A stretch of 64,000 bases of DNA from Naegleria gruberi. Lineage: Eukaryota. The translations under genes were made by a program, and so were the position numbers. Location of the stretch: assembly GCA_000004985.1 (NCBI GenBank), contig GG738863.1. One strand, 5' to 3'. Position 1 is the stretch's first letter. Every line of letters begins with the position of its first letter. Below are positions 8,476-9,363 of the stretch, in pieces. The notes beneath the pieces are model-generated. The model was not told the origin of the DNA and ran no database searches. It saw only the letters and a list, made by a program, of their open reading frames with translations.

Positions 8476-9363
8476 TTAACAAATGATACATTTCTTCTCA
8501 TTACCTTCCTTCTTTGCCTTCTTATCTGACAATTTTGTTGTGCTTGTTACTGCTGCTGCTTTAGGTTTATTATCCAAATTCTTCTTAATTTCCAAAACCA
8601 TTCTTGTGAAAGCTTCCTCAACATTGGCCGAAGATTTTGCACTCGTCTCAATGAATGGCATATCATACCGGTTTGCTAATTCTTCACCCTCTGAACGTTC
8701 AATTACTCTCTCAGAGGTTAGATCTGATTTACAACCAACCAAAAATTTTGTAATATCTACAGGAGCTGCCTTGTCAACTTCATTAATCCATTGACTGACA
8801 TTATCGAAGGAGGATTGGTCAGTGATTGAGTAGGCGATAAATACACCGTGTGCATCTTTGAAATAACCTGGATGCTGTTCGATAATTAGGTAAATAAACT
8901 TATAAGGTGGTGGTTGGTTGGTTGACTTACACTATTTCACAATTGTGAGCTATTTCACACCAAGAGTTGTAAAACACTTACATTTTCAATGCTTGACTAG
9001 GACTAATATCAAATATTAAGTAAATCATATGATAATGTCTTACTTACGCATTCCATATTTGTAATTTCAATGTTTTTCCATCCATTTCAATGGTACGAAT
9101 TTTAAAGTCAACTCCGAGAGCGGAGTAATAAGTATCTGAGAAGGTATTGTCCTGAGAAAGGGGTAAGTTTGTGTGAAATATGTGGTTTACATACAGAATA
9201 ACGAAGGAGAAGTGATTTCGTTCCAACTTTACGATCACCTAATATCATGTTTAGTTTAGTTTAGTTTCCCTACTTACCAAGGAAGAGTATTTTTACAAAA
9301 TAATCACTACAAAGTTCAAATCATTTCATTTCTGCAACAAATAACTTACTATGATGGATCCAT
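8476..9363 (-). CDS. Rab-family small GTPase-like protein, at least 6 exons, with degenerate nucleotide-binding motifs
   Basis: Exons by eye: 9363..9350 (ATGGATCCATCATA), 9306..9278, 9238..9195, 9151..9048, possibly a micro-exon about 8991..8982, and 8874..8476. Introns start GTAAGT/GTATGT and end TAG/CAG (43, 39 and 43 nt; the last two unresolved). Assembled protein: [64 protein letters not shown]...[52 protein letters not shown]...[24 protein letters not shown]...KKCIIC*. Strong Rab1/Rab8-like similarity apart from the G motifs. Confidence 0.65.

Follow-up and report, generated by a model that had tools for sequence, protein, structure and literature searches.

We studied a gene located on the minus strand of a 64,000-nucleotide (nt) stretch of Naegleria gruberi DNA (contig GG738863.1, assembly GCA_000004985.1; this whole stretch is called here the window). 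The original prediction had presented it as a Rab1/Rab8-like gene with a conserved multi-exon structure and degenerate guanine-nucleotide motifs, and the peptides and the GTAAGT/GTATGT donors that it quoted were all recovered where it had placed them, on the minus strand. The assembled product matched the Pfam Ras family (PF00071, residues 10-173) with E=8e-44, which is far beyond chance, and the gene follows the seven-exon plan of Naegleria Rab1, so the family assignment and the conservation of the exon structure both stand. For the comparison we used the canonical Rab1 loci of N. fowleri (VFQX01000041.1, here L001) and N. lovaniensis (PYSW02000027.1, here L004). By homology to these, the gene was divided as follows:

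9363-8476, minus strand: Rab1-like gene, with ATG at 9363-9361 and TAA at 8478-8476
9350..9363, minus strand: exon 1, 14 nt, encoding MDPS plus 2 nt of a Tyr codon; length and phase as in Rab1 of N. fowleri and N. lovaniensis
9307..9349, minus strand: intron 1, 43 nt, GTAAGT...TAG
9278..9306, minus strand: exon 2, 29 nt, strand beta-1; also 29 nt in Naegleria Rab1
9239..9277, minus strand: intron 2, 39 nt, GTAAGT...TAG; it holds the false ATG of the GenBank model XP_002678222.1
9195..9238, minus strand: exon 3, 44 nt, degenerate P-loop; also 44 nt in Rab1
9152..9194, minus strand: intron 3, 43 nt, GTATGT...CAG
9048..9151, minus strand: exon 4, 104 nt, with the switch I Thr changed to Ala (YYSALGVDF, 9104-9130), a nearly intact interswitch and KLQIW-NA
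9003..9047, minus strand: intron 4, 45 nt, GTAAGT...TAG; its acceptor is the first AG past the branch-like TTTACTTAAT
8982..9002, minus strand: exon 5, 21 nt, TCCTAGTCAAGCATTGAAAAT, read as (A)PSQALK(I); homologue of a 27-nt Rab1 exon, with a 6-nt deletion
8932..8981, minus strand: intron 5, 50 nt, with a TTTTAC branch-like box, a duplicated TGTGAAATAG and a competing upstream AG
8931..8931, minus strand: exon 6, putative single-nucleotide exon T (aaatag/T/gtaagt), which would complete an Ile codon and restore the frame
8875..8930, minus strand: intron 6, 56 nt, GTAAGT...CTAAT...CAG
8476..8874, minus strand: exon 7, 399 nt including TAA; equal in length to the final exon of Naegleria Rab1
8722-8736, minus strand: G4 region of exon 7, CKSD
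8635-8649, minus strand: ETSAK of exon 7 (G5, residues 147-151)
8491-8526, minus strand: polybasic stretch of exon 7
8479-8490, minus strand: CIIC of exon 7

Exon lengths were 14/29/44/104/21/1/399 nt at the locus and 14/29/44/104/27/1/399 nt in Rab1 of both N. fowleri and N. lovaniensis. The sole length change with respect to Rab1 is thus an in-frame deletion of 6 nt in exon 5, where TCCTAGTCAAGCATTGAAAAT occupies the place of TGCTGGCCAAGAACGATTCAGAACAAT, the 27-nt Rab1 exon that encodes (T)AGQERFRT(I), and PSQALK replaces AGQERFRT. When the 21-nt exon is joined to the single nucleotide (the 21+1 structure), the coding sequence has 612 nt and 203 codons with zero premature stops, all 12 splice dinucleotides are intact and the donors read GTAAGT or GTATGT. 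The junctions predicted for this form are TTGAAAAT-T-CATCCAGG (AAAAT-T-CATCC), and its predicted peptides include LQIWNAPSQALK and IHPGYFK. Relative to it, a transcript that used the upstream AG of intron 5 would have 18 nt more, and the micro-exon form of the GenBank models 12 nt less. The canonical donors that had been described were all found intact, and the count of introns, given before as at least five, is six. All of them are short, from 39 to 56 nt (276 nt in total); the introns of N. fowleri Rab1 (L001:2015-2903) measure 53-198 nt (684 nt in total).

The segment 8875-9047 was the difficult part of the gene, since the original prediction held that it could only be read with a 10-nt micro-exon or a non-canonical site. 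Instead, the Rab1 plan leads to the 21-nt exon (9002-8982) followed by the 1-nt exon (8931). Between 9047 and 8875, an enumeration of every GT-AG path containing at most three introns gave 64 that are stop-free, none of which yields DxxGQ. With so many available, the mere fact that a model is in frame here is no evidence for it, and this applies to the 10-nt micro-exon used in the GenBank models too. Two candidate structures, this micro-exon, whose acceptor is AAG, and a 31-nt exon with the donor GTGTGA, proposed by the curators, were rejected, the homology-supported 21+1 structure being better than either. Between the two versions proposed earlier for the G3 region, PSQALK, which lies in exon 5, remains; the IEN form, which comes from the micro-exon, is superseded. 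The correlation of relative synonymous codon usage with the neighbouring open reading frames (ORFs) did not separate the reading frames and was uninformative.

The single-nucleotide exon was considered in the canonical genes too. In Rab1 of N. fowleri and N. lovaniensis the 27-nt exon ends in phase 2 and the last exon begins in phase 0 with ACA TCA/TCG AGT/AGC (TSS). In the N. fowleri gene, a single T was the only frame-restoring internal exon flanked by AG and GT that was found, among lengths of 1 modulo 3 up to 40 nt. Its context is taacag/T/gtacgt (L001:2735), and the equivalent in N. lovaniensis is ttacag/T/gtatgt (L004:1732), to be compared with aaatag/T/gtaagt at position 8931 of the window. 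In both species the 1-nt exon gives the conserved RTITSSYYRG, and the complementary DNA (cDNA) predicted across it reads AGAACAAT-T-ACATC(A/G)AG, encoding RTITSS. The public models appear to be wrong at this point, each in its own way, with RTIYYRG in XP_044560913.1 of N. fowleri and RTMYTSSYYRG in XP_044547007.1 of N. lovaniensis. At the scale of the window, AGNGTANGT was found at only 4 places on the two strands together, and from this rate about 0.003 chance matches are expected in the 107-nt stretch concerned. It seems, then, that the canonical Rab1 of these two species needs a single-nucleotide exon (cag/T/gtaygt) to produce RTITSSYYRG, and we infer that exon 6 of the locus is the same exon, inherited with the Rab1 plan. 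The DNA pattern of Rab1 exon 5 plus its donor had no match in metagenomes, and none of the transcript-derived Rab1 proteins from Logan that were inspected matched the Naegleria Rab1 sequences. A search of the literature for a single-nucleotide exon in Naegleria found no earlier report. It was also possible to see that two copies of TGTGAAATAG, offset by 18 nt, lie immediately before the 1-nt exon (8932-8959), and that the related TGTGAAATC is conserved in the intron that follows the 1-nt exon in Rab1 of N. fowleri (L001 ~2780) and N. lovaniensis (L004 ~1765); these may be a splicing element or chance.

Regarding the origin of the gene, the closest solved relative of the product is human Rab1A (E=5e-57). 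Identity was 50% to Acrasis Rab1 and 29-39% to six other Naegleria Rabs (five RabX and one Rab18). Rab1 of Willaertia has no introns 2, 5 and 6, and that of Acrasis has no introns 2, 4, 5 and 6; considering these gaps, the locus is a duplicate, made at the DNA level, of a Naegleria-type Rab1 gene.

The motifs were compared by aligning the product with 13 canonical Rab1/Rab8 proteins. At G1, the P-loop is GDRKVGTKS in place of GDSGVGKSC, where Thr replaces Lys and Lys replaces Ser (K21T/S22K/C23S), and GxxxxGK[S/T] is no longer found. A one-residue insertion had been proposed here. Exon 3 has, however, the parental length of 44 nt, as in Rab1 of N. fowleri and N. lovaniensis, so the change from GKSC to GTKS involves no net insertion and would have arisen by substitutions or compensated insertions and deletions. 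At G2, the switch I Thr is replaced by Ala40 (YISTIGVDF to YYSALGVDF). At G3, DTAGQ becomes NAPSQ in exon 5, with a switch II 2 residues shorter, and at G4 NKxD becomes GCKSD (8722-8736, codon AAC to TGT). The degeneracy of G1, G3 and G4 that had been claimed is therefore confirmed, and the switch I Thr of G2 is lost besides; only the ETSAK of G5 (residues 147-151) is kept. The RabF motifs of Rab proteins are IGVDF, KLQIW, RFrsiT, YYRGA and LVYDIT. In the product, LGVDF and KLQIW are kept, while RFRTIT is changed to LKI, YYRGA to YFKDA and VVYDVT to IAYSIT. The C-terminus ends in KKCIIC, in agreement with the prenylation-like tail described before; the Rab1 GGCC is replaced by a polybasic stretch and a CaaX-like CIIC, so prenylatable cysteines are present but in a different arrangement from the CC or CXC of Rab1.

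Among the 76 columns that are invariant in the 13 canonical proteins, 48 were kept and 28 lost. The radical losses cluster in G1, G2, G3, switch II and G4; the others are mostly conservative (L/I/V, F/Y, R/K, C/S, D/N), and the interswitch, the hydrophobic core and ETSAK are retained. Several motif codons have changed at two or three positions, for example AAC to TGT and GGT to AAA, which suggests that the motifs were lost long ago. Taking into account that G1 and G4 lie inside exons and that no GT-AG path gives DTAGQ, no splice variant restores the motifs. A transcript structure with intact GxxxxGKS, DTAGQ and NKxD, which the original prediction had named as the result that would overturn it, was thus not found among the 64 paths. 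The AlphaFold model of XP_002668134.1, a second N. gruberi protein described below, presented the full G-domain topology (beta1-alpha5), with a predicted local distance difference test score (pLDDT) of 78 that was lower in the switch regions. Superimposed on Rab1a and Rab8a, the model gave a template modelling (TM) score of 0.88 and 1.9 Å; an intact fold is expected in this model because its input alignment consisted of Rab proteins.

The product is already in GenBank as XP_002678222.1, annotated as 'ras family small GTPase [Naegleria gruberi]', which lies on a 467,654-bp scaffold, was a near-perfect match in the protein search, placing the window in N. gruberi NEG-M, and is 100% identical over the last exon; the next matches in that search were canonical Rab1 proteins, with 45-51% identity. 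The start of XP_002678222.1 is an ATG within intron 2 (MILGDRK..., 9239-9277 in the window), so exons 1 and 2 are absent from the model, which has neither the Rab N-terminus nor most of strand beta-1. XP_002668134.1 shares a 90% cluster with it and is located on a 2126-bp contig. The two differ at 4 of 199 amino acids (aa) (S to A, E to Q, T to I and A to T), and XP_002668134.1 probably represents an allele of the gene or a copy made very recently. Its N-terminus agrees with the one derived here. Both models are annotated with full-length ORFs and both use the 10-nt micro-exon, giving WNAIENHPGYF. An accession-based search of the literature found no mention in main texts, and the gene was found only in a supplement, Table S8 in Additional file 10 of Herman et al. 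2021 (BMC Biol 19:142, PMC8296547), where it is an unclassified 'Rab' with a hand-corrected model. The degeneracy of the motifs has thus already been noticed by specialists, but only in a table, and since both the gene and the doubt about it had been recorded before, the novelty is limited. What is new here is the exon structure, the evidence that selection acted over a long time and, for the Rab1 genes of Naegleria, the single-nucleotide exon.

In order to compare the gene with what decay would produce, the N. fowleri Rab1 coding sequence was subjected to AT-biased substitutions in a neutral-decay simulation until it reached the observed 52% identity (3000 runs). The mean was 6.2 premature stops per run, and only 0.23% of the runs were stop-free. 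The pairwise nonsynonymous divergence (dN) was 0.37 against a synonymous divergence (dS) of 1.1-1.7; the latter is saturated, so dN/dS is only a rough bound. In the Rab1-type splice plan there was nothing that would disable the gene, whether a stop, a frameshift or a missing splice site. The original prediction had argued from the preserved introns that this is not a dead pseudogene, and the argument is now stronger, with the seven-exon plan, the 12 splice dinucleotides and the frame all kept; together with the rarity of stop-free runs, this indicates that the gene is not a long-dead pseudogene. Judging by the simulation and by dN below dS, neutral evolution does not describe its long-term history, and selection probably continued to preserve the ORF once the motifs had gone. 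The most economical account is that the nucleotide pocket was lost first and that the gene was then still maintained as coding.

These comparisons document descent from Rab1, the exon structure as predicted by homology, the loss of the motifs and the fact that ORF and splice sites were maintained over the long term. On this basis, we propose that the locus is a Rab1-derived candidate pseudoGTPase whose ORF was maintained, spliced via an inherited single-nucleotide exon and possibly now decaying, and we would give this proposal an even chance. In this reading, an unprocessed, N. gruberi-specific duplicate of Rab1 kept the parental seven-exon plan, including the single-nucleotide exon, and 21+1 splicing would yield a 203-aa protein with a Rab fold and a dismantled nucleotide pocket. 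Such a protein would no longer bind or cycle guanine nucleotide, as the loss of G1-G4 suggests, and would be a pseudoGTPase of the class-i type. REP is not needed for a CaaX box to be prenylated, and membrane anchoring may be provided by CaaX prenylation and basic residues in place of REP and RabGGTase. The tail would matter in this respect because the switch II that binds REP and GDI is gone, and a polybasic-CaaX tail fits the history of a gene kept after pocket loss. The protein may serve, or have served until recently, as an adaptor or decoy of Rab1 type that works independently of nucleotide. A more specific version, which we consider speculative and unlikely, is that of a natural 'dominant-negative' Rab1, a nucleotide-free mimic with a farnesyl-type anchor that would trap or scaffold TRAPP or interswitch-binding effectors and tune the traffic between endoplasmic reticulum and Golgi in N. 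gruberi; its expression would depend on the correct use of the single-nucleotide exon inherited from Rab1.

Several observations weigh against a maintained pseudoGTPase, and most of them form at the same time the case for a recently disabled unprocessed pseudogene, that is, a Rab1 duplicate that lost its motifs and is now mis-spliced or carries a premature stop, with no useful protein. In Table S8 of PMC8296547 the entry for the gene in the column 'putative pseudogene?' is 'yes', and no one-to-one N. fowleri orthologue is assigned, the accession appearing once in that file. In the searches made, the gene was confined to one species: word-filtered searches of a database of 5.8 billion proteins found no relative above 51% identity, a search with the last exon in the same set returned only the gene itself, and the metagenome contigs of JGI gave no match. 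The second N. gruberi copy differs by 4 of 199 aa. Four of the five G motifs are lost, and evolution is strongly accelerated, with a dN of 0.37 for the locus versus 0.07-0.09 among heterolobosean Rab1 genes and a rough lineage dN/dS of ~0.4-0.6, strongly relaxed with respect to Rab1. Finally, an insertion of 18 nt in intron 5 has duplicated TGTGAAATAG (8959-8950 and 8941-8932) and with it the acceptor. The TTTTAC branch-like box (8974-8966) is common to Rab1 of N. fowleri and N. lovaniensis, and its distance to the first AG (8951-8950) is 20 nt, equal to the acceptor distance in N. fowleri; the productive AG (8933-8932) is 18 nt downstream of the first. Splicing to the upstream, positionally homologous AG would produce an exon of 19 nt and place a TGA in frame at 8939-8937. 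A reading of this TGA as a sense codon or selenocysteine was dropped, given that the gene itself ends in TAA; no search for a selenocysteine insertion sequence (SECIS) was made.

Nevertheless, the inserted 18 nt hold a branch site of yTnAy type, CTCAC, 13 nt upstream of the productive AG, which makes both acceptor outcomes plausible. Recent disablement also has to accommodate 203 codons with neither stop nor frameshift in the Rab1-type plan, the conservation of all the splice sites and of the 1-nt exon, the full-length ORFs annotated for both N. gruberi copies and a tail that is a coherent polybasic-CaaX signal and not random sequence. As a stop-free ORF has P=0.0023 under neutral divergence, any death of the gene must have been very recent. 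We regard a recent pseudogene as a substantial possibility, somewhat short of an even chance. It was also considered that the product could be a working nucleotide switch that binds GTP/GDP via non-canonical residues, since some atypical GTPases tolerate deviant G motifs. The product retains ETSAK and the G4 Asp (CKSD), its P-loop has a Lys one residue further on (GTKS), and an intact fold is predicted. Against this, four motifs are affected at the same time (Lys/Ser register in the P-loop, Thr in switch I, Asp and Gly in DxxG, Asn in NKxD), switch II has lost two residues, and in Rab1 the replacement of just one residue, either the Ser of the P-loop or the Asn of NKxD, already results in nucleotide-free or dominant-negative proteins, so that a working switch appears improbable. 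The disagreement on the exon structure between the two public models and the curated one could still point to an annotation or assembly artefact hiding a true transcript with intact GxxxxGKS, DTAGQ and NKxD. This explanation has practically no chance, considering that G1 and G4 are within uninterrupted exons, that the 64 stop-free paths are devoid of DxxGQ and that the second, independently assembled N. gruberi copy has the same degenerate motifs.

The gene is flanked by only ~130 and ~200 nt of intergenic DNA. The other features detected in the window were the following:

10354-10755, 4481-5191, 9567-10199 and 7766-8347, minus strand: neighbouring ORFs
5860-7542, plus strand: neighbouring ORF
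11871-12266, minus strand: 131-aa ORF with a signal-peptide-like start followed by Gly/Tyr/Asn-rich repeats (GYGYGVPYYGG)
19935-20007 and 22085-22157, minus strand: tRNA-Ile(AAT) and tRNA-Ala(TGC), respectively (ARAGORN, Rfam)

One of the neighbouring ORFs is a mitochondrial-carrier fragment (PF00153, E=3.5e-16) and another had a weak leishmanolysin-like match, below the cut-off (E=1e-3). Three more, of 193-560 aa, had no Pfam match, and the 210-aa one looked by eye like a multi-pass membrane protein.

The significance of the locus depends on whether the protein is made. If it is, it would be a pseudoGTPase derived from Rab1 and would illustrate how a switch protein can become a module that works independently of nucleotide and, in the process, exchange its lipid-anchor signal for another; if the locus is merely a duplicate in decay, there is nothing unusual in it, and the literature has already flagged it. 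The single-nucleotide exon that Naegleria Rab1 genes appear to need, in turn, is a very rare feature, which automatic annotation mis-handled in N. fowleri, in N. lovaniensis and in the gene studied here, and it bears on the quality of the gene models of the genus.

By comparison with canonical Rab1/Ypt1 (N. fowleri, N. lovaniensis and human Rab1A/B), the product has ~50% identity and the same fold (TM 0.88 to Rab1a), and intron positions and phases are identical to those of Naegleria Rab1, where only the length of exon 5 differs (21 versus 27 nt). In contrast, the locus has lost G1-G4, the sequence of its switch II (RabF3/RabF4) has been rewritten with the loss of 2 residues, and GGCC has become KK-CIIC; its dN is ~5 times that among heterolobosean Rab1 genes and its introns are of 39-56 nt versus 53-198 nt. 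The experimental dominant-negative mutants of Rab1 include S25N and N121I. Both positions, the P-loop Ser and the NKxD Asn, are changed in the product of the locus too. The mutants, however, are single engineered changes in an intact switch, whereas the alterations at the locus extend to both switch regions, which makes the binding of the exchange factor by this protein itself uncertain.

The candidate pseudoGTPase is also comparable to the class-i pseudoGTPases as defined by Stiegler and Boggon 2020 (cited through PMC13393502), of which the pG domains of p190RhoGAP (PMC5593906), AAGAB (PMC12490416) and the microsporidian ArlEM (PMC13393502) are examples. Like them, it keeps the GTPase fold with mutated canonical G motifs, nucleotide binding being unlikely, and like ArlEM it combines degenerate motifs with predicted lipid anchoring. 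The locus derives from Rab1, whereas these examples come from Rho, Arf or other lineages; they are conserved across many species or were shown biochemically, and the locus is a singleton of one species, known from its sequence. As for the single-nucleotide exon, such exons have been documented in Arabidopsis APC11 (PMC4674806) and Fusarium CYP621A (PMC12940212). Unlike those, the Naegleria exon is deduced from homology and frame in three Naegleria genes; as in both of them, at the locus one coding nucleotide would lie between a consensus acceptor and a consensus donor, required by the frame and missed by automatic annotation.

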